From positions 1 through 39,990 of IMG/VR virus record IMGVR_UViG_3300040801_000790: a stretch of 39,990 nucleotides of DNA; one strand, 5' to 3'. This document shows positions 16,605 to 33,590 of this stretch, one piece after another. The DNA is from a virus. Each line of letters opens with the position of its first letter. Positions within the stretch are counted from its first letter, which is position 1. Both the position numbers and the translations under genes were made by a program. A model generated the notes under the pieces. The model was not told the origin of the DNA and did not search any database. It saw only the letters and a program-made list of their open reading frames with translations.

Positions 16605-17081
16605 ATGCCAGCGCCTAAAGGAAACAACTACTGGGAATTTAGAAACAAGCACGGAGCAAATCACAAGTATACTCCTGAAAATCTGTGGGAAGAAGCAGTA
16701 GCCTATTTTGATTGGATGAAGGAAAGGGTTTGGAACAAGAAGGAAGCAATTAAAAGCGGAGAGCTTGCTGGAAGCGTTATGGATGTGCCTACCCAAACCC
16801 CAATGAGTATAGAGTCGTTTTGTTTGTTCGCTGATATAAGTCGTCAAACCTTAATAAATTATGAAAGTAACAAAGAAGGATACCAAGATTTTTTTGAAGT
16901 CACAACACGCATAAGGAATATTATAGACAGTCAGCAGTTTGAGGGGGCTACTGTAGGCGCTTACAATCCTAATATAATAGCTAGGAAACTAGGTTTAACA
17001 GATAGGAGAGATATTACATCAGACAACAAGCCATTACCACCTACTCAAATCATATTCACAGATGATATAAACGATGTCTGA
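16605..17081 (+). CDS. terS: Terminase small subunit (158 aa)
   Basis: KYTPENLWEEAVAYFDW...PMSIESFCLFADISRQTLINYE...ARKLGLTDRRD fits the small-terminase pattern (HTH followed by a C-terminal LKN/GW.D-like motif). Immediately upstream of, and overlapping, TerL. Confidence 0.75.
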   Translation: MPAPKGNNYWEFRNKHGANHKYTPENLWEEAVAYFDWMKERVWNKKEAIKSGELAGSVMDVPTQTPMSIESFCLFADISRQTLINYESNKEGYQDFFEVTTRIRNIIDSQQFEGATVGAYNPNIIARKLGLTDRRDITSDNKPLPPTQIIFTDDINDV

Positions 17082-18291
17082 GAATGTAAAGAAGATATTC
17101 CTACTACCTCATCAGAAGGAGTTTATTAAGTCTAAAGCTATGCATACAGCCATAGTAGGCGGTTATGGCAGCGGAAAGACTGAGGGAGGTTTATATAAAA
17201 TCTTTTCTGTAATGTTGAGGAACAGGGTTGACACAGGTTATTACCTACCTACCTATGGGCTAGTTGAAGATGTGGCAATCAAGAAAGCTCCAATAGTTCT
17301 AAAGAGAATGGGGATAGACTACTCAATTAAAATGAAGCCTTACAACTTGACTTTAAAAGGGTTTGGTACAATGATGCTTAGATCAATGGAGAAGCCAGAT
17401 TATATAGCTGGGTATGAGGTGGGGTACTCTATCATTGACGAGATTGACAGAATGAGCAAGAAAAAAGCGGAAGAAGCATTTAACGCCATAACTGCTCGTA
17501 ATCGTGCTTTAATGGAGTTTGATAAGAACTCTATTGATTTTGTTTGTACGCCTGAGGGCTATAGTTTCTTGTATGATTTTTTCGTTACCAAGAAAAGCCC
17601 AAACAAAAAGCTTATCAAGGCTAAGACGTCAGATAATCCATTCCTTCCATCTGATTACATAGACCAACTAAGAGAGAACTATACTCCTGAGCAGTTAGAA
17701 GCTTACTTGAATGGTGAGTTTGTTAACATGACTACAGGAAGCGTTTACAGGGATTACAACAAGGAAAAAAACTACTCACCAAGGGAGATATTACACAATG
17801 ATTTGCTGCATGTTGGGGTAGACTTTAATATGGGGAATATGAGCGCGGTGGTACATGTGGTAGATGGTTTGACGGCAACTGCAGTAGCGGAGGTTTCAAA
17901 CTCTTATGATACTAGGTCGTTGGCAGAGGAGTTGAAGTATAGATATCCTAGACATCGAATCGTTATATACCCCGATGCGTCAGGCTCTAACAGGAAGACA
18001 TCAGCATCAAAGACAGACGTTCAAATATTAAAGAGGTATGGTTTTACAGTCAAAAACTTAACAAGAAACCCCTTTGTTAAAGATAGAATCAACACAATGA
18101 ATAATGCTTTCGAAAAAATGCTTTACTTTGTGAACCACATGAATTGCCCTTCATACTCTGAATGCTTACAACAACTACCATACAAGGGTAATGAGCCAGA
18201 CAAGACAAAGGGATTAGATCATTTACCAGATGCTGGTGGGTACTTTGTTTGGTGGATGTTTGGGAAAGGAAAGAAAACAACTAAATTTTAA
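17074..18291 (+). CDS. terL: Terminase large subunit (405 aa)
   Basis: Walker A VGGYGSGKT and Walker B YSIIDEID. The C-terminal nuclease-like motifs are VGVDFN and YPDASG. Confidence 0.85.
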   Translation: MSENVKKIFLLPHQKEFIKSKAMHTAIVGGYGSGKTEGGLYKIFSVMLRNRVDTGYYLPTYGLVEDVAIKKAPIVLKRMGIDYSIKMKPYNLTLKGFGTMMLRSMEKPDYIAGYEVGYSIIDEIDRMSKKKAEEAFNAITARNRALMEFDKNSIDFVCTPEGYSFLYDFFVTKKSPNKKLIKAKTSDNPFLPSDYIDQLRENYTPEQLEAYLNGEFVNMTTGSVYRDYNKEKNYSPREILHNDLLHVGVDFNMGNMSAVVHVVDGLTATAVAEVSNSYDTRSLAEELKYRYPRHRIVIYPDASGSNRKTSASKTDVQILKRYGFTVKNLTRNPFVKDRINTMNNAFEKMLYFVNHMNCPSYSECLQQLPYKGNEPDKTKGLDHLPDAGGYFVWWMFGKGKKTTKF

Positions 18292-18295
18292 TTAT

Positions 18296-18421
18296 ATGAA
18301 AAACAAGTTTATGTATTATATTGGAAGAGCGACAGGGTTTGTTTTGATTTGTCTTGTGTTGCTTACTAGCTATGTAGCTTTAAAGGTGTGGACTGAATGG
18401 TTAATTAAAAACTTATGGTAA
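18296..18421 (+). CDS. Small TM protein (41 aa)
   Basis: ATG 18296 has an AACTAA leader. The sequence is MKNKFMYYIGRATGFVLICLVLLTSYVALKVW.... Confidence 0.45.
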   Translation: MKNKFMYYIGRATGFVLICLVLLTSYVALKVWTEWLIKNLW

Positions 18422-18978
18422 AGAATACAATCTTCACAACGGAGCGATTAATTTCTTACACATTCCCTTCATCTTGGGATGACATAGATTACAGAACATT
18501 TAAGCTTCTTAACTTCGAGGATAAGACTGGTTTGTTTCATTTGCTTACTGGACTGGATAAAGAAGTAATTGAAAACATTCATGTATACAAGCACCTTGAC
18601 AAAGCACTAGATAAGTTAATGAGTGTTGAGTATCCTAAGGAGTTGCCAAGCAGGATAAAAGGGGTTAAGTTGTGTGATAAGATAACGGGGGAATCTATCG
18701 GTCAGTACGAAGATGCTAAACTATCAATTAATCAAGATGGAGTTAACGCGCCTCCGATAGTAGTAGCTATATACCTACAAGAATCAAAGGGGTATGACTA
18801 CGACAAGGCGCTACTATTATCTAAGGAAATAGAGAAGATGCCATTCTACATTGTGGTAAATGCGTACAATTTTTTTTTGACCAAATCAATAAACAAGAGG
18901 ACTACTTGGTTAAGTCGCTTGCTCCTAATAATTCGAAGTATAGCGAAAAGATTAAAGCAGCTGGTTATGAAAAACTAG
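18415..18978 (+). CDS. Structural-module protein, zero-frame product (187 aa); its 3' end overlaps a -1 frame ORF
   Basis: ATG ORF. After the T9 run (18870-18878) the zero-frame tail is Leu/Arg/Lys-rich (LTKSINKRTTWLSRLLLIIRSIAKRLKQLVMKN) and looks like an out-of-frame read. Confidence 0.6.
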   Translation: MVKNTIFTTERLISYTFPSSWDDIDYRTFKLLNFEDKTGLFHLLTGLDKEVIENIHVYKHLDKALDKLMSVEYPKELPSRIKGVKLCDKITGESIGQYEDAKLSINQDGVNAPPIVVAIYLQESKGYDYDKALLLSKEIEKMPFYIVVNAYNFFLTKSINKRTTWLSRLLLIIRSIAKRLKQLVMKN

Positions 18979-19139
18979 GAGAGGTGTTTGGTTTTATGGT
19001 GACTTTAAACGACTTATCAGAGGGATGTATGATAAAACAAAAAAAAATACTTAAATTGCCTGTGTCAGATATACATCAACAAATGATTTATCGAAGTTGG
19101 TTAACACATTGCGACAGGAAGTTTGAAGAAACGCTATGA
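18876..19139 (+). CDS. -1 frame extension reachable by slippage on the T9 run (predicted fusion about 241 aa)
   Basis: The -1 frame is open from 18825 to 19139. After slippage it reads FDQINKQEDYLVKSLAPNNSKYSEKIKAAGYEKLGEVFGF..., which is protein-like. The only start in that frame is TTG 18906. Confidence 0.45.
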   Translation, partial: FDQINKQEDYLVKSLAPNNSKYSEKIKAAGYEKLGEVFGFMVTLNDLSEGCMIKQKKILKLPVSDIHQQMIYRSWLTHCDRKFEETL

Positions 19140-19576
19140 GTGAGAAGTATATAAACGATTTAATCGAACAATCAGTATCACAGTTGCCCATCTCATTAGA
19201 GTTGGGCTTTGGTACTTTAAAAGACTTTGAATTAACTATAGCTTCTGAAAACTACGGTCTTCCGTTAATGTGGATACTGCCACACAATCAGTCAGCATCT
19301 AGCATACAATCTAGTAATGTAATGATAGATTCCCACGCTATATCTGGAATACTTCTAACAGATGATGATGTTGACCAAACAGCACAATCAAGACGTGAGA
19401 ATGCTGAGTTCGCTGATAGCTTCATAGATACATTCGTATCAAAGCTAAATGAGAGTGATAAAATTACGATTAACTCTATAAGTAAATCTCCAATATATCG
19501 TGTTCATAATTCAATATCACAAGGAAAAGCCTTTGTTATCAATTTAACCATGCCAAAACAAACGCAATGTTGTTAG
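19136..19576 (+). CDS. Hypothetical virion-module protein (146 aa)
   Basis: Coupled ATG ORF in the structural block. Confidence 0.6.
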   Translation: MSEKYINDLIEQSVSQLPISLELGFGTLKDFELTIASENYGLPLMWILPHNQSASSIQSSNVMIDSHAISGILLTDDDVDQTAQSRRENAEFADSFIDTFVSKLNESDKITINSISKSPIYRVHNSISQGKAFVINLTMPKQTQCC

Positions 19577-20022
19577 ATGATTTAAAAGACATCGGAGACA
19601 AGTCAGTAAAATCATTGAGGCAACAACTCAAAGATAAGGATAGGGTCGCTACTGGAAAAACTTCTGAAAGCATTAAATCAATCATAACAGAAGAAGGAAC
19701 TAATATCATCTTCAAGATAATCGCTAGGGAGTTTACTAACTTATTGGAGAAGGGCAGACCATCTACTGGGGTTGGTGTTAATCCATCAAAGGAATTTGTA
19801 GATAAGATTCAAGAGTGGATAGATGCCAAAGGGCTTGATTTACCAGCTTATGCGGTAGCAAAGAAGATTCACGACAAGGGTTATAAGGGTACTGACGGCT
19901 TGATAACTATACCGTTGCAAGAAATACTTACTGATATAAAAATAGCAGTAAGAAGGCATTATAAGGAAATAACTAAAACAAATATAATCAATGGGCTTCG
20001 AGGTAATTCAACGACCGTCTAG
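19567..20022 (+). CDS. HK97 gp10-like head-tail / tail-completion protein (151 aa)
   Basis: The pattern L..QL......ATGKTSESIKS...... LEKGRP resembles the HK97 gp10 family. Confidence 0.4.
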   Translation: MLLDDLKDIGDKSVKSLRQQLKDKDRVATGKTSESIKSIITEEGTNIIFKIIAREFTNLLEKGRPSTGVGVNPSKEFVDKIQEWIDAKGLDLPAYAVAKKIHDKGYKGTDGLITIPLQEILTDIKIAVRRHYKEITKTNIINGLRGNSTTV

Positions 20023-22987
20023 ATACATTTTTGAAAGCGGACAAAGTTTTTCGGTGCAAAAGCATGTGTTTGAAGGGTCTACATACTTCGGAGGCTCGGG
20101 GTTAACGCTTGGGAATAGGTTAACAGTCTCTTTTTGGGTTGAATTAACTGGTATAGGTGATAATCCTATAGTTTCTTTTATTGATTCTTTAAACGCGAAT
20201 AACAATTTTGTAATTTATGGGTCTGTAGTAGGTGGTAATTTAACTATAAACGCTGGTAATTTAACCAATATAGACACTAGTATAGCTCTTGATGGACTGA
20301 CTCATGTTGCTGTAACTGCTAACGGGACTAGCGGAAAAGTTTATATTAACGGTGTATTTGTGGTTAATATAACAATACCAGTTTCTAAATGGTTAACACA
20401 TGATGAGTTTTATATTGGTTACGATGGAACAGAGTTTTTAGATGGTATAGTTGATGATGTGGTTGTGTTCAATGGTGATTTATCAAAGGACGAGATTTCA
20501 AAGCTTGCTTTATCACCTTCTTTGTATCAATTAAAAAAATGGGGTGCGCTATATTCGTTTAAAAACAGAGAAGAGGTAATAGATGAAATTAACGGGCTTG
20601 AATTAACAGTAGTAAGCCCTAACCTTTCAGTATTTGGCAAGGAAGGGATAAACGAAACACCTCAATTTTTGTCACGATGGAATGCTGGTGGTGGAGAACT
20701 ACCTTTGCTTTATAAGATTGAAAACGATTTATTTCCTACCAACAAAGTAGATACAGTTTTTGATATAATAGGCGCAACGGAGTCACTAGGAAGAACATCA
20801 ATAGAGACTAGTGCAGACCATTTGTTAGACATTGGAGACTTAGTTTTTCACAAAGACTGCGAAAATGAAAGTTATAATGGCACTTACAGGGTTGTACAGA
20901 TAGACTCTCCTACTGTTTACATTGTCGGTGTTGCATTTGTTGGCGATGAAACACAAGGAAGCACACAAAAACGATACGAGAACTACGCAATAAACGTAAC
21001 TGTTTACGCTGGTTTATCAGATACGCACCCATTGAGTGAATTAAAACCAATAGAAGAGATAGGTAAGCTTAGCGTACAGCCAGACACAGACAACATATCT
21101 TACATTGATATAGTAGAGTTAGTTAAATCAAAACTATCCATTCAAAACCCATTATTTAAAGAGTATTACCCAGTTGATTTGAGTGCTTTCACTTACTTTT
21201 ATGTAGAAGTAAGTGAGACGTACAGGGTGGGTGGTATAACTATCTTTGAATCAACGCCAACTGTAGACTCTATTAATAGTTGCGCAATAGATACTGAATT
21301 ATTTACCGACCCTAACTTTGATAACGAACTAACATCATGGGAGCAGCTATGGACACAAGAGGAGTGGATTGCTGGGGTTAACGAGGTGACTAGTTCTTTC
21401 AGTACTCAACCAGTCACAAAGACACTAACACAGACGGGTGTTACTATCAGAAGCGGTGTAGGTTATAGGATAGAATGGGATAGTGATTTTGAAGGTTATA
21501 AGGAAGTTGTTTTGTTGTTTGTGTCATATAAGGGTGGTGTTCTTAGAATACGATCTAGCGATAAATCTGGTGTAATAAACAGAACTTTTTTAGGAGATTA
21601 TCCATTAGTTGGTATATATATAGTAAGCTTAAACGGTATTGATTCAAGCGATGTTTCTTTATCAAAATTTTCAATAACAGAGTCTAGTTGTAATGTTTTC
21701 CTGTTTGCCACTAATTCAACTAAGCAGTTTCAAAACAAAACAGGAGGGTCTATGGGTGATTATGAAATTCACCAACTAGCCGAATCTAAGTTTATGACTG
21801 ATTTTGATAAGCCTGTTTTATTTAAGGGCTATCCTTTTGCTTTATCTACCATAATAACAAAGGAGTCATTAGAAGGGTCTTTGAACGCAGATTCTTTATA
21901 TATACGCAATATCACAGAGGGGGTAGATTACAAGATAGACACTTACGGTGACGGCGTTTACAGGGTTGGCGGTGACTTAGATAGTGACTTAGAAGAGATT
22001 GATGTTGAAATATATTCAGTGCCTCAGAACTACTTCACACTTTATTCTAACGGTACTTTTGAAGATAATACAGAGGTCGGTATTGTTAATTTCAACAGCC
22101 CTGAAACGGGCACGGTGAACATTCTTAAAGGAATATCATTATCGAACGCTTACTCTGGAAGACATTCCTATTTAGTATCTTCACCAGAATTTACATTTAG
22201 CCCATTGCTTGGTGGTTCTTTATTCCCTGTTCAGGATATAGTTGGTGGTCTTGATTATATAGTAAGTGCTAAAATACAAATCAACAATTTCAATCAAAAC
22301 GATTTAGACGATACTTACCTTACATTATGGGTTTTAGATAGTTCAAACAATCGTATATGCGAAGATGAAGTGTTTATACCTTACAACGGTGGGGGTTGGC
22401 AATCATTTTCTAAAAAAGTATCTATACCAGAGGGTGTCACTTCTTATAAGATAGCATTCTTTAAGGGAGGCACTACATCGGCATACGGGGTATTGTCAGC
22501 CAATATTGACAACATACAAGTGGTAGGTCCATACGAAAAGGTTTCTGAAACTAAAACAATTCGAATAGACAATGAATGTGGAAATAGCGAGATATATTTA
22601 ACATGGTTTAACTCATTAGGTGGTTGGGAGCAATACGTATTCAAGGCTAAAAAGGCATACAAGAGAACAATCGAGGGCAGCAAGTCTATTCGTAGGGATG
22701 TGTTTAATGACTGGGACAACTCCTTTATAAATGGGGAGTCTGATTTTGATTTTACGGAAATTGACACTTACAAAACCATCACGGTAAGAAGTCAGCACAT
22801 ATCACTATCTGAAAAATTAGCTGTAGAAAAGATAAAGACTAGCATTAAAGTACAAATGTTAGTTGACGACACGCTAACAACTGTAAGAGTAGACAAGGGG
22901 TCCTTCACCATATACGAAGACGTAGACAAGCTTCACACGATAGAATTTGACATTGATTTACCATTGGAATACATTCAAACTATATGA
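19991..22987 (+). CDS. Large tail / receptor-binding protein with an N-terminal LamG (concanavalin-like) domain (998 aa)
   Basis: THVAVTANGTSGKVYINGVFV...LDGIVDDVVVFNGDLSKDEISKL is a classic LamG_3 C-terminal signature. The size and position fit a tail protein. Confidence 0.65.
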   Translation: MGFEVIQRPSRYIFESGQSFSVQKHVFEGSTYFGGSGLTLGNRLTVSFWVELTGIGDNPIVSFIDSLNANNNFVIYGSVVGGNLTINAGNLTNIDTSIALDGLTHVAVTANGTSGKVYINGVFVVNITIPVSKWLTHDEFYIGYDGTEFLDGIVDDVVVFNGDLSKDEISKLALSPSLYQLKKWGALYSFKNREEVIDEINGLELTVVSPNLSVFGKEGINETPQFLSRWNAGGGELPLLYKIENDLFPTNKVDTVFDIIGATESLGRTSIETSADHLLDIGDLVFHKDCENESYNGTYRVVQIDSPTVYIVGVAFVGDETQGSTQKRYENYAINVTVYAGLSDTHPLSELKPIEEIGKLSVQPDTDNISYIDIVELVKSKLSIQNPLFKEYYPVDLSAFTYFYVEVSETYRVGGITIFESTPTVDSINSCAIDTELFTDPNFDNELTSWEQLWTQEEWIAGVNEVTSSFSTQPVTKTLTQTGVTIRSGVGYRIEWDSDFEGYKEVVLLFVSYKGGVLRIRSSDKSGVINRTFLGDYPLVGIYIVSLNGIDSSDVSLSKFSITESSCNVFLFATNSTKQFQNKTGGSMGDYEIHQLAESKFMTDFDKPVLFKGYPFALSTIITKESLEGSLNADSLYIRNITEGVDYKIDTYGDGVYRVGGDLDSDLEEIDVEIYSVPQNYFTLYSNGTFEDNTEVGIVNFNSPETGTVNILKGISLSNAYSGRHSYLVSSPEFTFSPLLGGSLFPVQDIVGGLDYIVSAKIQINNFNQNDLDDTYLTLWVLDSSNNRICEDEVFIPYNGGGWQSFSKKVSIPEGVTSYKIAFFKGGTTSAYGVLSANIDNIQVVGPYEKVSETKTIRIDNECGNSEIYLTWFNSLGGWEQYVFKAKKAYKRTIEGSKSIRRDVFNDWDNSFINGESDFDFTEIDTYKTITVRSQHISLSEKLAVEKIKTSIKVQMLVDDTLTTVRVDKGSFTIYEDVDKLHTIEFDIDLPLEYIQTI

Positions 22988-23193
22988 TATACTTAGAAGT
23001 GTTTTGGCAGATAATACAGGGGTGGTTTCTTTACTTGTCCCCATCAAAGGAGTCTAAGGAAAGAAGGGCTGAAAGGATGAAGCATTGCAAACCATGCGCT
23101 AACAATGTAAAGGGTGTTTGCGTTTCTTGTGGGTGTGTGTTAAAGGCAAAGACACTAGTTAAAGACGCTAAATGTGACTACGGTAAATGGTAA
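22984..23193 (+). CDS. Small Cys-rich protein (69 aa)
   Basis: CKPCANNVKGVCVSCGCVLKAK...KCDYGKW is a multi-Cys, zinc-ribbon-like motif. Confidence 0.55.
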   Translation: MIYLEVFWQIIQGWFLYLSPSKESKERRAERMKHCKPCANNVKGVCVSCGCVLKAKTLVKDAKCDYGKW

Positions 23194-25145
23194 GAATAAA
23201 GATAAACAACACCTTCTTAGAACTAGAGAGAGACTTTCAGATAGCCCTTAACTTATCAGTAGGTGACATTGCCGAACTACAATCTAGAGCTGGAAACCAT
23301 ACCTATTCTATTCAGATACCTTGGACAAATAACAACGCTAAGGCATTTAATTTTGTAGCCACTAACAACATTGATTTTAAAGGGTCTAAGAAGGTAGATG
23401 CAGAGATTTACCAAGGTCAAAACAGGGTACTAAAAGGATTTATAATAGTAAAATCGTACTCAGAAAAAATCTTAAAGGCTGTATTTTACTCGGGAAATAG
23501 TTTCTGGATAGACGCGCTAGGACAGCTAAAACTTACAGATATAGATTTTAGTGAGTTAGAACACCTTTGGAATGAGGATTCAATACTGAATAGTCTTTCG
23601 AACGGATGGGAGGATGGATATACGTATCCTTTTATAAATTATAACGACAAAAGCAATACTTCGTCCACCGAGTTCACAGCCAAACAATTTAGACCTTGTA
23701 TGTTTGCTAAGTATTTGCTAAACAGAATTTTTAACGACATATACATAATTCCTAAAGGTCAGGTTTTATCAAATCCTGTTTTTGAAAAGATGATATTAGC
23801 ATCTTCTAAGATAGATGAAAGCTCTTTTAAACCAGTCAAGTATAACTTTTTAGGAAAACCGATAGGAAGTTCAGACGTAATAAGTACCGAGAGTGAAAAG
23901 AAATGGATTTATGACCCCCAGGATTTAGGTGTTTTCGACATTAAGTATAAGTATTTTAACGAAAAAACAACTGGATATACAACAACACTAATGAATGCTT
24001 CTGATGGTAGATATACTGCTCAGACTAGAATTAATGTAAGGATAAAAGCCGAATCTATTAAGTGGAGAAATGCTGGCAATTTTGTGGGGGATAGCTATTA
24101 CAAGTATATAGCAGCCTACTCTATATCTGTTAGGCGTAACGGAACAGAAATAATTGATAGTCAGGTTATAAATGAAGTTATTACTTTAGATGCTGGTGAC
24201 TATATAGAGGTTTTCACAAAGAACAATAGCGATGTTTATAGTATCCTGTTCAATCCTAATGAGAATTTTCTAGTTAACTATTTAGATATTAGTTTAGATA
24301 GTCCAGTAACAGGAACAGCTATTACACCAGCATCATTTATACCAGACATGACTCAGTTAGAGTTTGTTAAAGATATAATGCTCATGTTTGGTTTGCAAGC
24401 TGACTACAATGAGACCACAAGGGCGATAGACTTCTTTAGTTACGAAGAGGTAATGCTTAATGAGGCTGTAGATTGGAGTAACAAGATAGACGGAAAGCCA
24501 TCGTTTGATTATACAGCACTAACATCTAGGTATTCACAAGTAAACAACTTGAAGTGGTCAGAAGATGACAAGGACTTAGTATTAGAAGCTTATAAAGCAG
24601 CTAACAATAAAGGAGTTGGCGAAGGGTTTATAATCATTGATGATGATTCATTAAAAAAAGAATCTGATTTAATCACATTGAAAGCGTCCCCTACTTATGG
24701 AGAATTTACGCAGAATTGGAACGGATTAAACATACCATTCATACCAGAAGAGGGTAAGTACAGATACTTGTTGGTTAATCAAAACGTAGATACTATAGAT
24801 GTGTTAGGTGTTGCCAATATAAGTATTGAAGGAGAAAACACAACGAAGGTTAATTATGCTTTCTTCGATGACTTATCGCACTTGAATAATGAGTTTTACG
24901 AGTCGCTAAGTTTTGAGGAAAAATTTAATAGAAGTTCATTAAAGGAAAATTATAGAGTTCTTGAAAACATTCTTAACAATGGATACATAATGAAGGTTAA
25001 TGTGTTCTTAAAACCACAAGATATAACCTCGATTGATTTTAAGCGACCTAGATACATAAGACCTTTAGGGTTGTTTGCAATAAACAAAGTGAATAAATAT
25101 GACTTCTCAAACAACTCAACTGAAGTTGAACTAACTAAGCTATAA
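23187..25145 (+). CDS. Tail structural protein (652 aa)
   Basis: Large ORF between the LamG tail protein and the tape measure. I recognised no enzymatic motif. Confidence 0.55.
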   Translation: MVRIKINNTFLELERDFQIALNLSVGDIAELQSRAGNHTYSIQIPWTNNNAKAFNFVATNNIDFKGSKKVDAEIYQGQNRVLKGFIIVKSYSEKILKAVFYSGNSFWIDALGQLKLTDIDFSELEHLWNEDSILNSLSNGWEDGYTYPFINYNDKSNTSSTEFTAKQFRPCMFAKYLLNRIFNDIYIIPKGQVLSNPVFEKMILASSKIDESSFKPVKYNFLGKPIGSSDVISTESEKKWIYDPQDLGVFDIKYKYFNEKTTGYTTTLMNASDGRYTAQTRINVRIKAESIKWRNAGNFVGDSYYKYIAAYSISVRRNGTEIIDSQVINEVITLDAGDYIEVFTKNNSDVYSILFNPNENFLVNYLDISLDSPVTGTAITPASFIPDMTQLEFVKDIMLMFGLQADYNETTRAIDFFSYEEVMLNEAVDWSNKIDGKPSFDYTALTSRYSQVNNLKWSEDDKDLVLEAYKAANNKGVGEGFIIIDDDSLKKESDLITLKASPTYGEFTQNWNGLNIPFIPEEGKYRYLLVNQNVDTIDVLGVANISIEGENTTKVNYAFFDDLSHLNNEFYESLSFEEKFNRSSLKENYRVLENILNNGYIMKVNVFLKPQDITSIDFKRPRYIRPLGLFAINKVNKYDFSNNSTEVELTKL

Positions 25146-27304
25146 TGGAAGAGGAAATAATATCGGTAACTATTGACAACGCATCTGCTATTAAGAAAAT
25201 TGAAGAGCAGACCGAAGTATTGAGGCAAGTCAATGAGCAAACAAAACAGCTTACTGAGCAAAACAAGGCTTTAACCAAAGCTAATAAAACGTTAGCTGAC
25301 GAGTTTAAGACTGGTAAGATAACACAACAGCAGTTTAATGCAGCGGTAGCAGAAAACAACGCACAAATAACTCAGAATTCAACCAAAATAGCGTTAAACA
25401 AAAAAGAAACTAGCGACCTAACAAGCACTAGGAAGAATCTAATCAAGTCTTTAGACGTTGAGAAAGGAAGTCTTGAAGACATGAGGGCGGAACTATCACG
25501 CCTAACAAGTGCTAGAAACAAAATAAACATCTCAACAGAAGAGGGACGTAAGAAATTCGATGCTTACAACAAGACTATTAAGACGCAGAATGACGCTATT
25601 CTTGATTTAGAAAAGGCTGGAGGTAGTTATCAAAGACAAGTAGGTAACTACGAAAAGGGATTAAATTCTGTTAACCCAGCAATAGGCTCATTTATATCAG
25701 GGATCAAGGCTTCGACCACCGCAGCATTAGCATTTATAGCAACACCATTAGGGGCAGTACTAGCAGCTTTAGGGCTGGCTCTTGCTGCTGTGGCACAATA
25801 CTTTACTAGAACAGAAGAGGGTGCGGAGAAGCTCAGGATAATAACAGCAACTTTAACGGTCGCATTTCAAAAGTTCCTTGATATAGTTGCAAGTATAGGA
25901 GGTGTTATAGTTAAGGCTTTCGAAGACCCACAACAAGCAATCAAAGACTTTTCAAACTTAGTAAAGGAAAATATTAGCGACAGGATAGAAGCTTTGTTTG
26001 ATGTGTTCGGGCTGCTTGGTGAAGCAGTAAAGAAAGCTTTTGAGGGAGATTTTGAGGGTGCTTTAGAGAGTGCTAGTAAAGCTGGAAAGAAATATATCAC
26101 AGAGGTTGATTTGATTGGTAGTGCTGTCGCTGGTGCTACTAAGATAGTCGGTGAAATGAGTGACGAGATTTTAGAGTCTGCAAAAAATACCTCAACATTA
26201 GAACGCGCTTTAATTAATTTAGAAAAGAAAGAAAACGATTTAATACTTACTAGAGCTAAAGCTAACTCCATTGTAAAGGAACAAAACAAGATAGCAGAGG
26301 ACTTAACTAAGTCACTTGAAGAGAGAGAGGCAGCAGCATTAAAGGCTATTGAAGCCGACAACTTAGTCCTACAACAAGAGCTTCAAATAGCAAGAGAAAG
26401 GGAAAGAATCATTAAGGCTCAAAACGAGCAAACAAATAGTTTAGAGGCAGACCGAAAGAGAGAGATTGAAGCAGAAGCAAAAGTATTTGAGTTAAGAACG
26501 AGAAGTGCAGAACTTCAAACAACTTTACAAAACAAGCTTAACACTATACGAGCGCAAGATGCAGCCCAAAAGAAAAAAATATCCGATGAAGAAACGGCAC
26601 GATTGGAGAAAGAAGCTGCGCAACTTGAAGCTAACGCAGAACTAGAAGCCCAGAGAATTGAAAAGGAAAAGCAAACACTCTTTGAATTAGAACTATTCAA
26701 GAAGGAATTAGCAGCACAAGCAATTGAAGACGAGATTATAAGAGCGGACGCGTACGTAGAGATAGAAAGATTTAAACTAGAAAGAATCCTACAAAATGAA
26801 GAGCTTACCAACGCACAAATATTATTAGCAAAAACAAAAGCGGCAGCAGCAGAGAAAAGCATTGAAGACTCAAAGCTGGCTATAACTAAGAAAAGAGAAG
26901 AAGAAAAGCAAGCGGTACAACTTCAAACTGTTAATGCAGTATCTGGATTCCTTAACGAAGCTTTCGGAAACTTCAAGCCTATTGCAATAGCTACGGCTAC
27001 AATAGACGGTATACTTGCAGCGCAGAAAGCATTAGCGCAAGGAGGTATCTTTGGGGCAATAGCTGCAGCAACTATTGGGGTATCAACAGCAAAAAATATA
27101 TCTTCAATTAAAAATACGAAACCAGCTAGCGGAGGGGCTTCACCCTCAACGCCAAGTAGTGCTAACAGCTTAATTAATCAATCGAACCAAACTAATAGGG
27201 TAACAGAAAGCATAGAGAACGCACCTAGACCAGTGGTATCGGTTGAAGAAATAACTTTAAGACAAAGACAAGTAGCAGAAATAAAAGAAACGGCAAGAGC
27301 ATGA
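25145..27304 (+). CDS. Tape measure protein (719 aa)
   Basis: Long coiled-coil (Ala/Glu/Lys/Gln-rich) protein with hydrophobic Gly/Ala segments: AALAFIATPLGAVLAALGLALAAVAQYF and ATIDGILAAQKALAQGGIFGAIAAATIG. Confidence 0.7.
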   Translation: MEEEIISVTIDNASAIKKIEEQTEVLRQVNEQTKQLTEQNKALTKANKTLADEFKTGKITQQQFNAAVAENNAQITQNSTKIALNKKETSDLTSTRKNLIKSLDVEKGSLEDMRAELSRLTSARNKINISTEEGRKKFDAYNKTIKTQNDAILDLEKAGGSYQRQVGNYEKGLNSVNPAIGSFISGIKASTTAALAFIATPLGAVLAALGLALAAVAQYFTRTEEGAEKLRIITATLTVAFQKFLDIVASIGGVIVKAFEDPQQAIKDFSNLVKENISDRIEALFDVFGLLGEAVKKAFEGDFEGALESASKAGKKYITEVDLIGSAVAGATKIVGEMSDEILESAKNTSTLERALINLEKKENDLILTRAKANSIVKEQNKIAEDLTKSLEEREAAALKAIEADNLVLQQELQIARERERIIKAQNEQTNSLEADRKREIEAEAKVFELRTRSAELQTTLQNKLNTIRAQDAAQKKKISDEETARLEKEAAQLEANAELEAQRIEKEKQTLFELELFKKELAAQAIEDEIIRADAYVEIERFKLERILQNEELTNAQILLAKTKAAAAEKSIEDSKLAITKKREEEKQAVQLQTVNAVSGFLNEAFGNFKPIAIATATIDGILAAQKALAQGGIFGAIAAATIGVSTAKNISSIKNTKPASGGASPSTPSSANSLINQSNQTNRVTESIENAPRPVVSVEEITLRQRQVAEIKETARA

Positions 27305-27561
27305 TCATATTTGACACTGTAAAAGAACAAGTTCCTAGTTTAAGCAGAGAGGAATTTAACAAAATCATAAACATCTTAATAAGAGATGGTGCTATATCTT
27401 ATACATACTCATACCATCAAGAGGTATATGATGATTTTAAAAAGTACCTTGAATTATATGGAGATGATACACAAGGAAGAGTACAGGCTAGGGATAGGGT
27501 TTGCAAGGAAAGAGGTTTCTCTAAAGTTACCCTATGGCGAATAGTCAAGAGGTTTAATTAA
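27301..27561 (+). CDS. Small protein with a C-terminal HTH-like motif (86 aa)
   Basis: The C-terminus RGFSKVTLWRIVKRF resembles a resolvase/terminase-type HTH. Confidence 0.45.
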   Translation: MIIFDTVKEQVPSLSREEFNKIINILIRDGAISYTYSYHQEVYDDFKKYLELYGDDTQGRVQARDRVCKERGFSKVTLWRIVKRFN

Positions 27562-27616
27562 GCACACGGTTAACTCATAGCACTTTTTAATACTTTTTTA
27601 TGTCTAAAATTAAGGC

Positions 27617-28690
27617 ATGAACAATGAAATATTTATTTACTCATTTATAGGAGACGAGGAAAGCGGAGGTGTTACGGCTTCTCAGGTGCATCAATCTTTG
27701 TCTAAAATGGATGGTGATGTAGATGTATATATTAATTCACCCGGGGGAGATGTGTTTGCAGGTCGTACAATCTACCATGCTATTAAAGGCTACTCTAAAG
27801 GAACTGTAACTGCTCACGTAGTAGGTTACTGTGGGTCTATTGCTACTCTAATAGCCTTGGGGTGTAAAAAGATTGTGATGTATGACGGTGCAAAATTCAT
27901 GATACATCAATCTTCTGTTGGTCAAATGAGCGGACGTTCAAGCGAGTTGAAGAGCATGGCAGATGAGCTTGAAGGAATCAATAATGATTTAGTAGAAGCA
28001 TACCATGAGAAGACAGGCTTACCAAAAGAGCAAATCATTGCTATGATGGATAAAGAAACCACAATGAACGCACACACAGCTAAGGAATTAAAGTTTGTAG
28101 ATGAAGTAAAAAAGTCGCTAAAAATTAGCGCAAGATATAATCACGTAATAAATAACAACATGGACAAAAAAGCAAAGTCAGCTAAGGAATTGCTTGCTTC
28201 TTTCACTAATTCTTTTTCTAAAATCTTTGGAGAAGGAGAGGAAGCTGAGGTATCAAACTTAGCTATGAAAACATCAGAGGGTAAAAACATTTACATTGAA
28301 TCTGACGACATTGAGACTGCAGTTGGTAAAGCTGCATACATGGCAGACGAAGAAGGTAATAAGACAGAAGAGTTACTGCCTGACGGGGAATTAAGTCTAG
28401 AAGGTGGTGTAACATTGGTCATTGAGGGAGGAGTAGTTTCTGAAATCAAATCTTCTGAATTGGAAGAGGCTAGAAAAGAAATTGAAAACTTAAAGGCTCA
28501 AATCGAACAAATCACAGCACAAAAAACCACAGCAGAATCTAAAGTTGAAGAAGCCAAGATAGAGATGTTGGCGTTCAAAAAGCAGCTTGACGAATTCCAA
28601 GAGATGCCAGCATTCACATCAAAGGCTAAAATGATAGTTGTAAACGAGCAAAAGAAAAAGGAAAATAAATTAAAATTTGTAAACATTTAA
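27617..28690 (+). CDS. ClpP-family (S14) prohead protease fused to a coiled-coil scaffold-like C-terminus (357 aa)
   Basis: YINSPGGDVFAG, GYCGSIATLIAL (Ser) and MIHQ (His) motifs. The C-terminal half is Glu/Lys-rich coiled coil. Confidence 0.8.
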   Translation: MNNEIFIYSFIGDEESGGVTASQVHQSLSKMDGDVDVYINSPGGDVFAGRTIYHAIKGYSKGTVTAHVVGYCGSIATLIALGCKKIVMYDGAKFMIHQSSVGQMSGRSSELKSMADELEGINNDLVEAYHEKTGLPKEQIIAMMDKETTMNAHTAKELKFVDEVKKSLKISARYNHVINNNMDKKAKSAKELLASFTNSFSKIFGEGEEAEVSNLAMKTSEGKNIYIESDDIETAVGKAAYMADEEGNKTEELLPDGELSLEGGVTLVIEGGVVSEIKSSELEEARKEIENLKAQIEQITAQKTTAESKVEEAKIEMLAFKKQLDEFQEMPAFTSKAKMIVVNEQKKKENKLKFVNI

Positions 28691-28694
28691 TACA

Positions 28695-29672
28695 ATGGCA
28701 GTAACGGTAGATTTAGATTATACATACAATGGGCAAGAGGTCTTTGATGTTCTCTTAGAACCAGCATTACAGAACGAGGACATCTTAAAGATGTTTAACG
28801 TTCTAACAAACATTCGCTCAAAGCGACAAATGATAACAGCCGACCAGTTCGGTAGGGTTTCATTTGCTGGGGATGGTACTTGCGATATTCCAACACCTGT
28901 AGGAAGTACCGTGTTAAAAAACAGAACGCTTGAAACAGGGGAGGTACAAATTTACATGACTCAATGCGCGAGAGAATTTTCCGAAGTTCTAGCAGAAGAG
29001 GCATTGAATACAGGGATTGAAATATATGACCTTTCACAAACTGAAATCAATAACAAAATAATTCTTCCATTGTTACAAGAAGCAGCGAAGAGAGATTTAT
29101 TTTACTTGATAAGCTTCGGTGATTTAGATAGTGCTGATGAGTTACTTTCAGCTGCTCATGGCTTATGGCCGACATTAATTGACGGTGTTGATGACTATAC
29201 TGTTATTGATGCAGAAGTTACATTTAACGCTATACTTGAAGAAGATGAAGCTTTAGAGGCATTTGAAAAAATGTGGTCACTTGCCCCTCAGAAGTTAAAG
29301 GCAATGAAAGACAAGATTGTTCTTGCGGTTACTGGTAGCTTATATGACAACTATGAGAAGTCGTTAAGAGACAAGGGGATAGACAACGGTTGGACAAGAC
29401 TACAAGAAGGTACTCCAAGCTTGAAATTCAACGGAATTGAAGTAGTTCCAATGAGAGGATGGGATAATGGAATCGCAGAATTTGAACTTGATAATCCTCA
29501 CAGAGCATTGTTGACGGTAAAAGAAAATCATTACATCGGAGTTGAGGACATGAAGAAAACAGCTACTCTAAGCTTTTTCTATGATAGAAATTCTCGATTA
29601 AACAAATACGAGGGTAGATACCGAGTAGGTTATCAGTTTGTTCATAAGGATTTACAGGTAATAGCTTACTAA
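28695..29672 (+). CDS. Major capsid protein (325 aa)
   Basis: It lies directly after the protease/scaffold, and its size and composition are typical of HK97-fold capsid proteins. This is a positional inference. Confidence 0.65.
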   Translation: MAVTVDLDYTYNGQEVFDVLLEPALQNEDILKMFNVLTNIRSKRQMITADQFGRVSFAGDGTCDIPTPVGSTVLKNRTLETGEVQIYMTQCAREFSEVLAEEALNTGIEIYDLSQTEINNKIILPLLQEAAKRDLFYLISFGDLDSADELLSAAHGLWPTLIDGVDDYTVIDAEVTFNAILEEDEALEAFEKMWSLAPQKLKAMKDKIVLAVTGSLYDNYEKSLRDKGIDNGWTRLQEGTPSLKFNGIEVVPMRGWDNGIAEFELDNPHRALLTVKENHYIGVEDMKKTATLSFFYDRNSRLNKYEGRYRVGYQFVHKDLQVIAY

Positions 29673-30217
29673 TGGGGTGTAGATTAACAGGAGGTATCAT
29701 CGCAGAGTGCGATGACCTCATACAAATTGGGGGTCTGTATAAGAAATCATGGCTTGGTAACGTAGAAGACTTGACGTTAGATTATGATGAAGACGGTTAT
29801 GTTAATGACATCACCATGGCAGAGTACGGGTTTCTTTACGCTTTTGAAAGCAAGAAGAACAGTTTTAGTGCTGGACACTCCACTGGTGACTCTGGGGCAG
29901 GGGCTAATAAATTCTTTATACACACAGGGGTATTAAAGCTATTCCCTAACACACCAGCAGAAGACGAGGCGATAAAAGACCTACTAGTTTCTAGTGTGTT
30001 TATGATTGTTAAGACTCAGAATGATAAGTTTTTAATCTACGGTGCTAAGAATGGTATGAATGCGGTTACTGAGCAGAACTCAGGACAAGAGGCTGGCAGC
30101 GACATCACAGAGATTGTAACACTTAAGGGCGAAGAGAAAACTAAGCCTTTGAGAATCAAGATAGGCGCGGATGCAGCAGCAACAGAGGCGGTGCTTGATG
30201 GGTTGCTAGAAGCATAA
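29672..30217 (+). CDS. Virion protein, possibly major tail/tube protein (181 aa)
   Basis: Coupled to the capsid gene and followed by a strong terminator, which suggests high expression. The sequence layout resembles small tail tube proteins. Uncertain. Confidence 0.35.
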   Translation: MGCRLTGGIIAECDDLIQIGGLYKKSWLGNVEDLTLDYDEDGYVNDITMAEYGFLYAFESKKNSFSAGHSTGDSGAGANKFFIHTGVLKLFPNTPAEDEAIKDLLVSSVFMIVKTQNDKFLIYGAKNGMNAVTEQNSGQEAGSDITEIVTLKGEEKTKPLRIKIGADAAATEAVLDGLLEA

Positions 30218-30238
30218 TTAAAAAAAACAAAATAAATG

Positions 30239-30278
30239 AAAGGCTATGTATTAATTTATGTAGCCTTTTTGTATTTTT
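30239..30278 (+). terminator. Rho-independent terminator
   Basis: AAAGGCTA 30239-30246 pairs with TAGCCTTT 30261-30268, followed by TTGTATTTTT. Confidence 0.7.
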
Positions 30279-30283
30279 AACCA

Positions 30284-30487
30284 ATGAACCATTCAGAGGC
30301 ATTAGAACTATTCAAACAGATAGACGGCAAGATAAGTTGTAAAGCATCATTTGGAGATGTGGCTAAATTTATTAAGCTTGTTAAGTACGTTAATCAATTT
30401 AAGAAAGTAAAGCTATCTACTTCAAAATGTCAGTTTAGATCAACCATGAATGAGATTAAATTCTTCTTAGAAAAGGTAAATGATTAA
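30284..30487 (+). CDS. Hypothetical protein (67 aa), first gene of the AT-rich cassette
   Basis: ATG ORF immediately after the terminator. Confidence 0.55.
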   Translation: MNHSEALELFKQIDGKISCKASFGDVAKFIKLVKYVNQFKKVKLSTSKCQFRSTMNEIKFFLEKVND

Positions 30488-31079
30488 AATTATACAGATT
30501 TGTTTTGATGAAGAATCAAAAGCTAATTGCTTCAATCATGAGAATGTAGAAGTATTTTTTAACGAAGAAAACCCCCACCCATATTTCGAGAATAAAATAA
30601 TAGCTGACAAAGTTCCTAATATAGAAGCTGATTATATAGGTGTTTTTTCACACGCATTTAAAAAGAAAAGAAAAAAGGATATTGATTTTATAATTAGGAA
30701 AATAAACAAAAATCCTGTTTACTCATTCTTTAGCAATATAAAGGATAAGAACGTGATTAGTCACATGGAGAGCTTACACACAGGCAGCAAAGAGATACTA
30801 AACTATATTTGTTTAAGGATTGGATTAACTCCATCAAACAAGCTTGCACCAATATATCAAAACCACTTTATAGCAAGAAAGGAAATATATAACGATTATG
30901 TGACATATCTAACCCATGCAATTGATTTGATGAATAATGATAAGTGGTTAATTGATAGGTGCAACAAACCAGCTATGAGAACGGGAAAGTACGCAACATA
31001 TACGCTTCATACATTTGTGTTAGAGCGTTTATTTTCAGTATATTGTAAAAACAAAAACATTAAAATTGAAATGATATGA
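30480..31079 (+). CDS. Hypothetical protein, possibly glycosyltransferase-like (DUF4422-like?) (199 aa)
   Basis: Only a weak resemblance: ENKIIADKVPNIEADYIGVFSHAF versus the DUF4422 ...DYVGLCHYRRYF region. Low confidence in the function. Confidence 0.5.
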   Translation: MIKIIQICFDEESKANCFNHENVEVFFNEENPHPYFENKIIADKVPNIEADYIGVFSHAFKKKRKKDIDFIIRKINKNPVYSFFSNIKDKNVISHMESLHTGSKEILNYICLRIGLTPSNKLAPIYQNHFIARKEIYNDYVTYLTHAIDLMNNDKWLIDRCNKPAMRTGKYATYTLHTFVLERLFSVYCKNKNIKIEMI

Positions 31080-31789
31080 AAATCACACACCATTTAAATA
31101 TAATCAATACAACAGCTAAGGTAATCAACGCTAGGACTTACCTAGAGATAGGTGTATGTACAGGTTCTAATATTAACAACGTAAGGATAGGAGCAAAGAC
31201 TGGTGTAGACGTTAACGATATTCGTGGAATAAAGGAAGGTATAGAGATGATTAAATCATCTTCTGATGACTTTTTCAGAACCAATGAAAGGAAGTTTGAT
31301 TTGATTTTTATTGACGGTGACCACTCACAAGAGCAGTCAATGAAAGATTTTGAGAACGCTTTAAAATGCGTGAGTAATAAAGGTCTAATCTTACTTCATG
31401 ACGTCTACCCTCCGAATTTAAAGCACATGGAATTAAACTTATGTGGTGGTGTTTACTTGAATGCTCAGGATATAAACAATAGATTTAAATGCGTTGTGTT
31501 TCCTTATGATTACGGAGTGATGATAGTTAATCCAAGAGTGACAAAAAACAAGAAAACACCTATTTTTGAAGGCAATGACTTCTTAGAGATAAAGGATGAT
31601 GTGTTTAACTATGGTCACGAGGTAAGAGATATTTCAAACTTAATCACAGAGGACAAAAAAAGCTTTGATTTGTACGAAAAATCAGACGAAGAAATTAAGG
31701 ATATACACCAAGAGGTATTCGGAAACAAGCCGAAAGGGAGGTATATAAGAGAAAATGTAATTGCTAAAATTGAAGCCTTTGGAAAATAA
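31076..31789 (+). CDS. Class I SAM-dependent methyltransferase (Methyltransf_24 / O-MTase-like) (237 aa)
   Basis: Motif I YLEIGVCTGSN. The DLIFIDGDHS and LILLHDV motifs are typical of this family. Confidence 0.7.
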   Translation: MKITHHLNIINTTAKVINARTYLEIGVCTGSNINNVRIGAKTGVDVNDIRGIKEGIEMIKSSSDDFFRTNERKFDLIFIDGDHSQEQSMKDFENALKCVSNKGLILLHDVYPPNLKHMELNLCGGVYLNAQDINNRFKCVVFPYDYGVMIVNPRVTKNKKTPIFEGNDFLEIKDDVFNYGHEVRDISNLITEDKKSFDLYEKSDEEIKDIHQEVFGNKPKGRYIRENVIAKIEAFGK

Positions 31790-32321
31790 GATAATAATCA
31801 CAGGTACGGGTAGGGCTGGAACTACATTTCTAGTTCACCTACTTACCCTTTGTGGTGTAGATACTGGATTTAAGAAAGAAAATGCGGACATCTTTATAGA
31901 TAATAAATCCTTTGGAGGGCTTGAATCATCAAGTCACGATCCCTATGTCTTGAAGTCTCCACACTTCTGTGATAAGATTGAAGATTTAAATAGTAAATAC
32001 TTCATTGACTACGTTATAATACCTATAAGAAGCCTAGAAAAGGCTGCCTCATCAAGAATTAGGGTTGGAAATAGCAATGGTGGTTATTGGGAGGCAACAA
32101 GTCAAGTTGGTCAAGAAATTGTTCTTTTAGAAAATTTTTATAAAGCGATTCACTCATGTGCAAAATTAAACATAGATGTTATACTGATTGACTTCGATGT
32201 AATTATGAGTGAAAAGGATGTGTTGTTTGTCACTTTAAGAAAGCCCTTCCCTAAATTAGATTACAACACTTTTATTAAATCTTACGATGAAATTTTTGAT
32301 AAGAGAAAGATTACGCAATAG
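31761..32321 (+). CDS. Sulfotransferase-family-like P-loop protein (186 aa)
   Basis: ITGTGRAGTTFL resembles the PAPS 5'-phosphosulfate-binding loop (G.xRSGTT.L; it lacks the Walker Lys). IIPIRSLEKAASS resembles the 3'-phosphate motif (R-x7-S). There is no ATG before the loop; the track start is TTG. Confidence 0.5.
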   Translation: MLKLKPLENKIIITGTGRAGTTFLVHLLTLCGVDTGFKKENADIFIDNKSFGGLESSSHDPYVLKSPHFCDKIEDLNSKYFIDYVIIPIRSLEKAASSRIRVGNSNGGYWEATSQVGQEIVLLENFYKAIHSCAKLNIDVILIDFDVIMSEKDVLFVTLRKPFPKLDYNTFIKSYDEIFDKRKITQ

Positions 32322-32387
32322 TTAAGCGGTTAGTTAACCGAAACAAAACCAACCTTTAAAAATCTTATCTTAGCGTAAATTGATAAG

Positions 32388-33590
32388 ATGATTAAGATTA
32401 TAAATAGGTCATACAATGATACAAAGGTCGACCAGTCTGCGGAATGGAATGAAAACCTAGGTATACTTAATTTTGGCAGAGGTAACGCTTTCCCTACGCA
32501 TCTAATTAGCGAGATAGAATTTTCGTCTTGTGCAAACGCTTGTTTATCTGCTAAACATAAATTTGTAAGAGGTGGAGGTTTTGAGAATGAGTTTTTAAAC
32601 ACATTTTTAATAAATAGAAGCGAAGTTATTTCTAAGGTTGACAACAAAATAAGTCAAGATTTATCGTTTTTTGATGGTGCTTATGTGCTATTAACATTCA
32701 ATTTTAAAGGTGTAATTAACGAGATAAGACACTTACCATTCGAGAACACTAGAATAGGTAAGATTGATGAATTTGGCAATCCTAAATCATTCAAGTATAG
32801 CCCTAAATGGGGGCATAAAGGGGATGAAGAAAACCCAGATGCTGATTTCATAACTGAATATGACGCATTAAATCTTGATAAAGAATATATATTAGAAAAA
32901 ATAAAAACCACGACAGGAGGCTATAGTGGTCAGGTTGTATATTTGAGTTTTGAAAGACCTTCTAAGAGAATCTATCCTGTTCCATTTTGGTATTCTGCAA
33001 TTAATTGGATAGGTATAGACGCTGCAATATCTGAATTTCACAAAAACAACATTGATAACGAGTTTCTTCTATCATACATGATCAAAATGGTAGGAGACCC
33101 TGATGAGTTGTTAAGAGACGCAGAAGGAAAAGAGACTAAGCAAACTAAGGGGGAAGCGTTTAATGAGTATTTGACCACTCAATTTGCTGGAACAAAAAAA
33201 GGGGGTAAAACTATTACTCTCTGGTCAGATGACTCACAAAACTTTCCATCAATAGAGGCGTTTCCAAACTCAAACAATGAGAAGCTGTTTATAGCTATGG
33301 AGGAATTGACAAAGAAAAACATAGTGCAAGCTTTCGGAATACCTAACCTAATAGCGAACATTGAGACGGCTGGAAAGCTTGGGGGGTCGGATGAAATTAA
33401 CAACGCAGTCGCTTTGTTTAATGGTAATACAGAGATGTATAGAACGTTGCGTGAAGAAATGTGGGAGTTAATACTACAATTCTACAAAACACCATATAAA
33501 GGCGGTGTAAAAATTAAAGAATTTGAATTTAAAAATATAGCAAATGCTAATAACACTGGAGGATTTCAAGGAGCAAGTTCTAATTTCTGA
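32388..33590 (+). CDS. Putative portal protein (400 aa)
   Basis: It is the only portal-sized ORF without another assignment, and it lies directly upstream of a connector-like gene. I recognised no diagnostic motif. Confidence 0.45.
   Translation: MIKIINRSYNDTKVDQSAEWNENLGILNFGRGNAFPTHLISEIEFSSCANACLSAKHKFVRGGGFENEFLNTFLINRSEVISKVDNKISQDLSFFDGAYVLLTFNFKGVINEIRHLPFENTRIGKIDEFGNPKSFKYSPKWGHKGDEENPDADFITEYDALNLDKEYILEKIKTTTGGYSGQVVYLSFERPSKRIYPVPFWYSAINWIGIDAAISEFHKNNIDNEFLLSYMIKMVGDPDELLRDAEGKETKQTKGEAFNEYLTTQFAGTKKGGKTITLWSDDSQNFPSIEAFPNSNNEKLFIAMEELTKKNIVQAFGIPNLIANIETAGKLGGSDEINNAVALFNGNTEMYRTLREEMWELILQFYKTPYKGGVKIKEFEFKNIANANNTGGFQGASSNF

Follow-up and report, generated by a model that had tools for sequence, protein, structure and literature searches.

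In tailed phages, programmed frameshifting is nearly equated with G/GT, the tail assembly chaperone (TAC) pair of phage lambda, and it is only there that annotation pipelines join open reading frames (ORFs). The lambda G protein ends a few codons after its slip site, the P2 analogue of G/GT, E/E', shifts on TTTTTTG, and in dnaX a Shine-Dalgarno (SD) sequence stands about 10 nt from the heptamer. An architecture of this kind, a 5' SD element followed by a slippery heptamer, has been described for dnaX and about 56% of insertion sequence (IS) elements, where the SD is a known stimulator of -1 shifting, and bacterial RNA polymerase (RNAP) slips efficiently on runs of nine A or T residues, a property that Thermus dnaX uses productively (PMC5009743). 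Here we analyse a gene at positions 18415-19139 (plus strand) of the window, by which we mean the whole 39,990-nt stretch of viral DNA that was studied (IMG/VR record IMGVR_UViG_3300040801_000790). The gene is split between two overlapping frames at a run of nine T residues (T9), and we put at roughly 0.85 the probability that expression of the gene relies on programmed -1 recoding at this run and that the recoding is real and conserved in an uncharacterised phage gene family. A literature search found no paper describing such a recoded family, which would be a second widespread one, annotated if at all as two hypothetical proteins; its recognition would correct how this gene is annotated in phages from marine and freshwater habitats, which include phages of Flavobacteriia.

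A sequence-only reading of the window had likened the arrangement to G/GT, remarking that the gene sits right after TerL rather than before the tape measure gene, the position that it has in the window and in all the relatives that we examined. The likeness holds in logic, but not in sequence, fold or gene position. As with lambda G/GT, a phage late gene would give two products with a common N-terminus by low-level -1 shifting on a simple heptamer, there is no strong downstream structure, and a fixed product ratio would be the point of the arrangement (PMC5009743); the sizes are alike too, with about 150 amino acids (aa) in common and an extension of about 90 aa. Among the four testable hallmarks of a TAC, the layout for two products through a conserved -1 shift is present in the family (22/22 split loci). 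The recoded gene fails the other three, namely position, sequence and fold: instead of lying between the major tail protein and tape measure genes, it lies about 6 kb upstream of a tape-measure-like gene; the fusion and 48 family members gave no match in Pfam and PHROGs scans, with TAC PHROGs matching 0/48 members and no member named in its source; and the only TAC among the BFVD structure matches was N15 GT, at E=0.88 and TM 0.35.

The slip site and its conservation

Re-reading the sequence confirmed the features on which the proposal of a shift had been built. The T9 run occupies 18870-18878, inside the overlap between the ORF at 18415-18978 (stop TAG 18976-18978) and a -1 frame that runs open from 18825, ends in a TGA (19137-19139) and has a TTG at 18906 as its sole listed start. 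The zero frame reads AAT TTT TTT TTG here, the run starting at codon position 3, and the run holds two heptamers, U_UUU_UUU (18870-18876) and U_UUU_UUG (18873-18879), both in zero-frame phase and both of the X_XXY_YYZ form. Read without a shift, the ORF encodes a predicted short isoform of 187 aa, in which residues 1-154 form an acidic N-domain common to both isoforms and the remaining 33 form a basic tail with a net charge of +9 (LTKSINKRTTWLSRLLLIIRSIAKRLKQLVMKN). A -1 shift changes the reading to ...NAYNFFFDQINKQEDY... and joins residues 1-154 to 87 residues from the -1-frame continuation (18876-19139), which comprises a helical C-terminal domain and the TGA, giving a predicted long isoform of 241 aa. 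A fusion of this length with a protein-like C-terminal part had been foreseen, and the part is indeed homologous to the C-terminal part of relatives encoded by a single ORF, as well as to separately called fragments of 65-107 aa; the N-domain is homologous to 41 distant relatives. One extra T in the run gives the same 241-aa fusion as a -1 shift, and the protein from either route is identical (NFFFDQ...). Among the predicted tryptic peptides, MPFYIVVNAYNFFLTK would be diagnostic of the short form and MPFYIVVNAYNFFFDQINK of the long form. The ATG at 19136, which starts the next gene, overlaps the -1-frame TGA.

The T9 run alone is unremarkable, as the window holds 3 A/T runs of at least nine against 9.4 expected from shuffles, and its significance lies in the coding content of both frames and in their conservation. 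From base composition, a -1 frame open for 87 codons past the run has P ~6e-4.

An exhaustive phmmer search with the fusion returned 50 matches, of which two (P0005 and P0006) were rejected as spurious, being internalin-like proteins with Ig repeats. The remainder were scored with separate hidden Markov models (HMMs) of the N-domain and the C-domain, taking representatives each less than 50% identical to one another. Fifteen are single ORFs of 225-276 aa spanning both domains, 26 have the N-domain only, followed by an unaligned, off-frame tail of 30-60 aa, and six are the 65-107-aa fragments, which match the C-domain only; about two thirds of the representatives are split at the same alignment column. 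In DNA, L004, L005, L006/7 and L008/9, at 25-36% protein identity to the window, have a T9 that starts at codon position 3 and a homologous C-domain in the -1 frame.

We also scanned IMG/VR with a degenerate, frame-neutral DNA pattern (T7 or longer, a variable gap, then the C-domain motif AG[FY]-x6-FGF), which yielded 37 loci, 18 of them family members by HMM. All 18 need a -1 shift to reach the C-domain, and it was in frame in 0/18. A comparison of the same locus in related phages had been proposed as a check on the shift, and it supports one: the overlap and the slippery site are conserved, and in the DNA of 22 split loci the C-domain lies in the -1 frame and an in-phase X_XXY_YYZ heptamer is present in every case. 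The slip sites are T7 at nine loci (xxT TTT TTT C/A), T9 at many (xxT TTT TTT TTR), T10 at L173 (AAT TTT TTT TTT ACC) and a heteropolymeric sequence at L012 (GTG GGA AAT TTT, that is, G_GGA_AAU / A_AAU_UUU). A more distant clade, represented by L175 and the Elizabethkingia phage TCUEAP1, is without any slippery run.

The same run recurs in independent sequences. The only close database relative of the window protein, P0001, is carried by a JGI contig of 1456 bp (L001) that is one single-nucleotide polymorphism (SNP) away from the window and has T9 as well. Two cultured phages of Nonlabens (Persicivirga), P12024S and P12024L, whose recoded loci share 98.4% identity, carry T9 at the corresponding place in the gene after TerL, and their split gene stands in GenBank as two hypothetical proteins with no frameshift annotated. 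The P12024S pair, P12024S_38/_39, is like the window in its surroundings (TerL, the split T9 gene, two genes of ~150 aa, large tail genes, protease, capsid and portal), and its N-domain matches the family HMM at E=6.5e-8; it differs in having no significant pairwise BLASTP similarity to the window protein, and in both Nonlabens phages T9 begins at codon position 2.

Several other searches returned little. Window sequences found no match in INPHARED by megablast or tblastn, and TCUEAP1 was reached there only with a query based on L034; a word-indexed protein search found only the near-identical P0001, and with the alignment as query only four proteins; a search for related loci with the single protein returned nothing; a similar degenerate DNA pattern run on genome contigs gave chance matches only, with no prophage or host information; and Rfam and tRNA scans of the window had no match.

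A second homopolymer, A9 at 19039-19047, lies inside the C-terminal -1-frame domain. Its context is CAA AAA AAA ATA, so that an A_AAA_AAA heptamer stands in phase some 30 codons ahead of the stop. The run is identical in L001, and relatives have no such run at that position.

Selection on both overlapping frames

Unlike lambda G, the zero frame in this family runs on for 12-67 codons past the slip site, and the tail that it encodes is under selection. In the window the dual-coded overlap spans 18879-18975, where 33 zero-frame tail codons lie over the start of the -1-frame C-domain. The sequence-only reading held that this tail looks out of frame, which was not borne out, as the frame is open beyond expectation and synonymous sites in the overlap are constrained. 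When the -1 frame was randomised synonymously and the open length of the zero frame compared, the window's 33 codons stood against a random median of 10 (P=0.019); the open length was at least the random median in 22/22 loci and above it in 21/22, with a combined P=5e-5 over 14 lineages.

Synonymous change in the -1 frame, compared over five independent pairs of related loci, tells the same story. Synonymous differences amount to 32/178 (18%) in the overlap and 69/132 (52%) downstream of the zero-frame stop (P=2e-10), and the third-position substitution rate is 0.23 in the overlap versus 0.51 downstream of that stop (P=2e-9). This suppression is the signature of dual coding and, together with the avoidance of stops, it indicates that both arms are under selection. 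Among phage frameshifts it is unusual for a long overlap to be under selection in both frames, and the locus offers a clean case of this in a double-stranded DNA phage.

The tails encoded in the zero frame are strongly basic, with charges of +5 to +15 (+9 in the window), and are carried on an acidic N-domain, and the -1 domain is roughly neutral in charge. The Nonlabens phages are an exception, with a zero-frame tail that is short (25 aa) and not basic. Amino-acid similarity among the zero-frame tails was considered as a further, independent line of evidence and rejected, being partly a by-product of conserved -1-frame motifs: IExW in the -1 frame carries over as xxG, for example, and EEEQAGF as KKNRPVL.

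Ribosome or RNA polymerase

The sequence-only reading had offered a programmed -1 frameshift and transcriptional slippage as explanations. Recoding as such is strongly supported, and either of the two routes, or both, may operate at T9. In the mechanism that we propose, most ribosomes would read straight through T9 and make the 187-aa protein, with its acidic N-domain and long basic helix, and a fraction would enter the -1 frame at the U-run and make the 241-aa protein, with the same N-domain and the 87-residue helical C-domain. Two isoforms would thus come from one message in a fixed ratio, as in lambda G/GT. The family-wide route is tandem ribosomal slippage on an in-phase X_XXY_YYZ heptamer, for which the window has the two candidates U_UUU_UUU and U_UUU_UUG. 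Insertion of one U into the mRNA by RNAP probably contributes at T9, because the lineages with long runs have mostly lost GGAGGU and because nine T's are the threshold for RNAP slippage. For the window, we give ribosomal shifting about an even chance of being the main route and transcriptional slippage a somewhat smaller one.

For the family as a whole, we take the comparison to show that ribosomal -1 frameshifting is the ancestral route, given the presence of GGAGGT at the T7 and GGGAAAT sites, the selection on it at the nucleotide level and the precedent of 5' SD stimulators. The element GGAGGT lies at -21 to -16, with a 15-nt spacer, in 10/10 T7 and GGGAAAT loci (L015, L016, L018, L025, L031, L035, L036, L046, L049 and L012), and in just 2/13 loci with T9 or longer, an association with slip-site type that has P=7e-5 by locus and P=0.007 by lineage in Fisher's test. 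Its codon phase is NNG GAG GTN, and, with GAG making up 31% of Glu codons and about 24% of codons ending in G, it appears to be selected at the nucleotide level. These relatives resemble E. coli dnaX and IS3 in that GGAGGU precedes an X_XXY_YYZ heptamer by a constant distance; they differ from dnaX in a somewhat longer spacer, and from both dnaX and IS3 in that no downstream stem-loop was found, the window itself also having no SD-like element.

Gene starts in the GGAGGT-bearing contigs show no Shine-Dalgarno, which suggests that initiation in the hosts may proceed without SD. Should these hosts be Bacteroidota, GGAGGT would be an SD-like element used in elongation and not in initiation, and the internal GGAGGU would bear on the role of their sequestered anti-SD.

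A number of observations weigh against ribosomal frameshifting in the window, or against recoding in general. Upstream of T9 there is no SD-like motif, the best anti-SD duplex reaching only -2.9 kcal/mol, and the downstream RNA of the window is no more stable than shuffles (minimum free energy z of -0.46 and -0.92), so that neither canonical stimulator of ribosomal frameshifting, a downstream stem-loop or pseudoknot or an upstream SD-like element, is present there; likewise, no downstream stimulatory RNA more stable than shuffles was found in the 22 loci. In E. coli, ribosomes shift comparatively weakly on the heptamer U_UUU_UUU (PMC5009743), which favours the transcriptional route at T9. The lineages used in the tests were delimited by eye, without a phylogeny. 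L175, a single ORF without a slippery site, has GGAGGT at the homologous Glu-Val, so that the element may be partly a protein-coding legacy. Finally, three relatives (L011 with T10, L010 with T10 and L174 with T11) are single ORFs.

One alternative is that the -1 frame is reached solely or mainly by transcriptional slippage, with RNAP stuttering on the nine template A's and adding one U to a fraction of transcripts, the U10 mRNA being translated normally into the 241-aa protein and the ribosomes not shifting; we consider this possible, though on balance improbable. Besides the weakness of U_UUU_UUU, the scarcity of GGAGGT at T9 or longer runs when it is present at every T7 and GGGAAAT site speaks for it, as does the lack of downstream RNA structure in the window. 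With nine T's on the coding strand the window reaches the length for efficient slippage, but this does not hold family-wide, given the T7 and GGGAAAT members. The locus is like Thermus thermophilus dnaX and Shigella mxiE/spa in having nine T's in a coding region and two expected C-termini, and like Thermus dnaX in having a stop in the third frame directly after the run: with GA following T9, transcripts with U8 or U11 would stop immediately at TGA. That TGA is automatic, however, from a conserved Asp/Glu codon in the -1 frame. Unlike Thermus dnaX and mxiE, moreover, the homologous genes of sister lineages get into the same -1 frame from T7 or GGGAAAUUUU, neither of them a long homopolymer and neither a likely place for RNAP to slip, so that slippage cannot define the mechanism of the family. 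Runs of T9 or longer also keep the codon phase of the T7 heptamer in all loci but one, and T8 is never seen; T9 can be explained by the use of TTT for a third Phe codon, the genome being AT-rich, which makes run length weak evidence for slippage.

Between ribosomal shifting throughout and slippage throughout lies a more elaborate possibility, which we raise only tentatively and think unlikely, namely that one gene switched its recoding device between lineages, with an SD-stimulated U_UUU_UUU or G_GGA_AAU shift in some and RNAP slippage on a bare T9 or T10 in others. The family would then be an unrecognised, non-TAC one in which both C-termini are functional over a dual-coding overlap of 100-200 nt and GGAGGU possibly pairs with the anti-SD in elongation, which would be rare, in hosts that are probably Bacteroidota and initiate without SD. 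The loci in any case form a comparative series (T7 with SD, T9/T10 without SD, GGGAAAT with SD) for studying substitution between ribosomal and transcriptional slippage.

Phase variation at the DNA level, in which slipped-strand mispairing would produce mixed populations of T9 genomes (short form) and T10 genomes (long form), seems very improbable to us. Long homopolymers are mutable, and the relatives include split members with T9 or T10 as well as fused members with T10 or T11. However, the T7 and GGGAAAT sites are not hypermutable and yet keep the split, and T9 is found in both of two near-identical assemblies and both of two sister phage isolates; each virion would, besides, need both isoforms from one genome if both are required, as the dual selection suggests.

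As for the fused relatives, L010 (1261-2016) and L174 (1501-2331) lie on the low-coverage, long-read ENA contigs ctg30109_2x_l and ctg112055l, the former with ~2x coverage and a second apparent indel near the 3' end, and both are probably assembly errors or homopolymer miscalls and not natural fused alleles. A homopolymer error in the window itself, where the true genome would have T10 or T7 and one plain ORF of 241 or 240 aa, had been listed among the original options and is hardly credible: homopolymers are error-prone, single-ORF relatives exist and the 241-aa fusion folds very well, but run length does not vary between the assemblies, T9 being found again in an independent contig that has a SNP at another position, in two phages that exist in culture and were sequenced separately and, at 25-36% identity, in many of the relatives, the shift required is exactly -1 at each of the split loci examined, the GGAGGT stimulator is conserved in the T7 members and the GGGAAAT member, and the zero-frame tail is under purifying selection.

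Protein fold and gene neighbourhood

AlphaFold2 models the fusion with a pLDDT of 94.9 and a pTM of 0.88, with a helix at 144-168 running through the junction; in the model of the short form (pLDDT 89.8) the tail continues this junction helix, to 144-186. Foldseek searches of the PDB with both models gave no match with E below 0.5, and a PDB profile search had no match, so the modelled fold of the fusion appears to be without a solved relative. In BFVD the fusion resembles uncharacterised proteins of uncultured Caudovirales, single ORFs of ~240 aa, at a TM of ~0.7, and it also matches the Nonlabens protein I6R9M9 at a Foldseek E=4e-5. By analogy, from the position of the gene and the precedent of G/GT, we infer that the product may be a virion-morphogenesis factor that opens the neck/tail block and whose isoforms would be needed in a set ratio.

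Gene order around the locus is constant, running from TerS and TerL through, often, a small membrane ORF to the recoded gene, two genes of ~150 aa, large tail genes, protease, capsid and a far-downstream portal. In the window TerL lies at 17074-18291, and four ORFs (146, 151, 998 and 652 aa) separate the recoded gene from the tape-measure-like gene (25145-27304). The structural order over 16605-33590 is unusual, with the portal (32388-33590) as far as 14 kb after TerL, and the block includes a 998-aa Laminin_G_3 protein, a protease (27617-28690) and a capsid-like protein (28695-29672). The same unusual order is common to P12024S (Inhavirus), L046 and L049.

The small ORF between TerL and the recoded gene encodes 41 aa from an ATG at 18296 (18296-18421; the ORF listing gives 18230-18421), with a hydrophobic helix, GFVLICLVLLTSYVALKVW, and its TAA overlaps the ATG at 18415. 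Small ORFs occupy the same slot in relatives, of 54 aa in L008, 60 and 78 aa in L006, and 101 aa in L046. On the other side, the 151-aa protein (19567-20022) has no direct family match, and two of seven syntenic orthologues match PHROG 5 (tail completion/Neck1, E=4e-4), suggesting that it is probably a neck or tail-completion protein.

Accessory genes are found directly downstream of the recoded gene in some relatives: a Tad2-like (anti-Thoeris) gene in L006 (3093-3383) and L007 (1715-2005), and a YopX gene in L008 (3407-3748). The junction downstream of the recoded gene has the look of a hot spot for insertions. A 237-aa ORF of the window (31076-31789), situated after the capsid block and before the portal gene, has weak DNA methyltransferase PHROG matches; in P12024S the gene annotated as a DNA methyltransferase is at another place and on the opposite strand.

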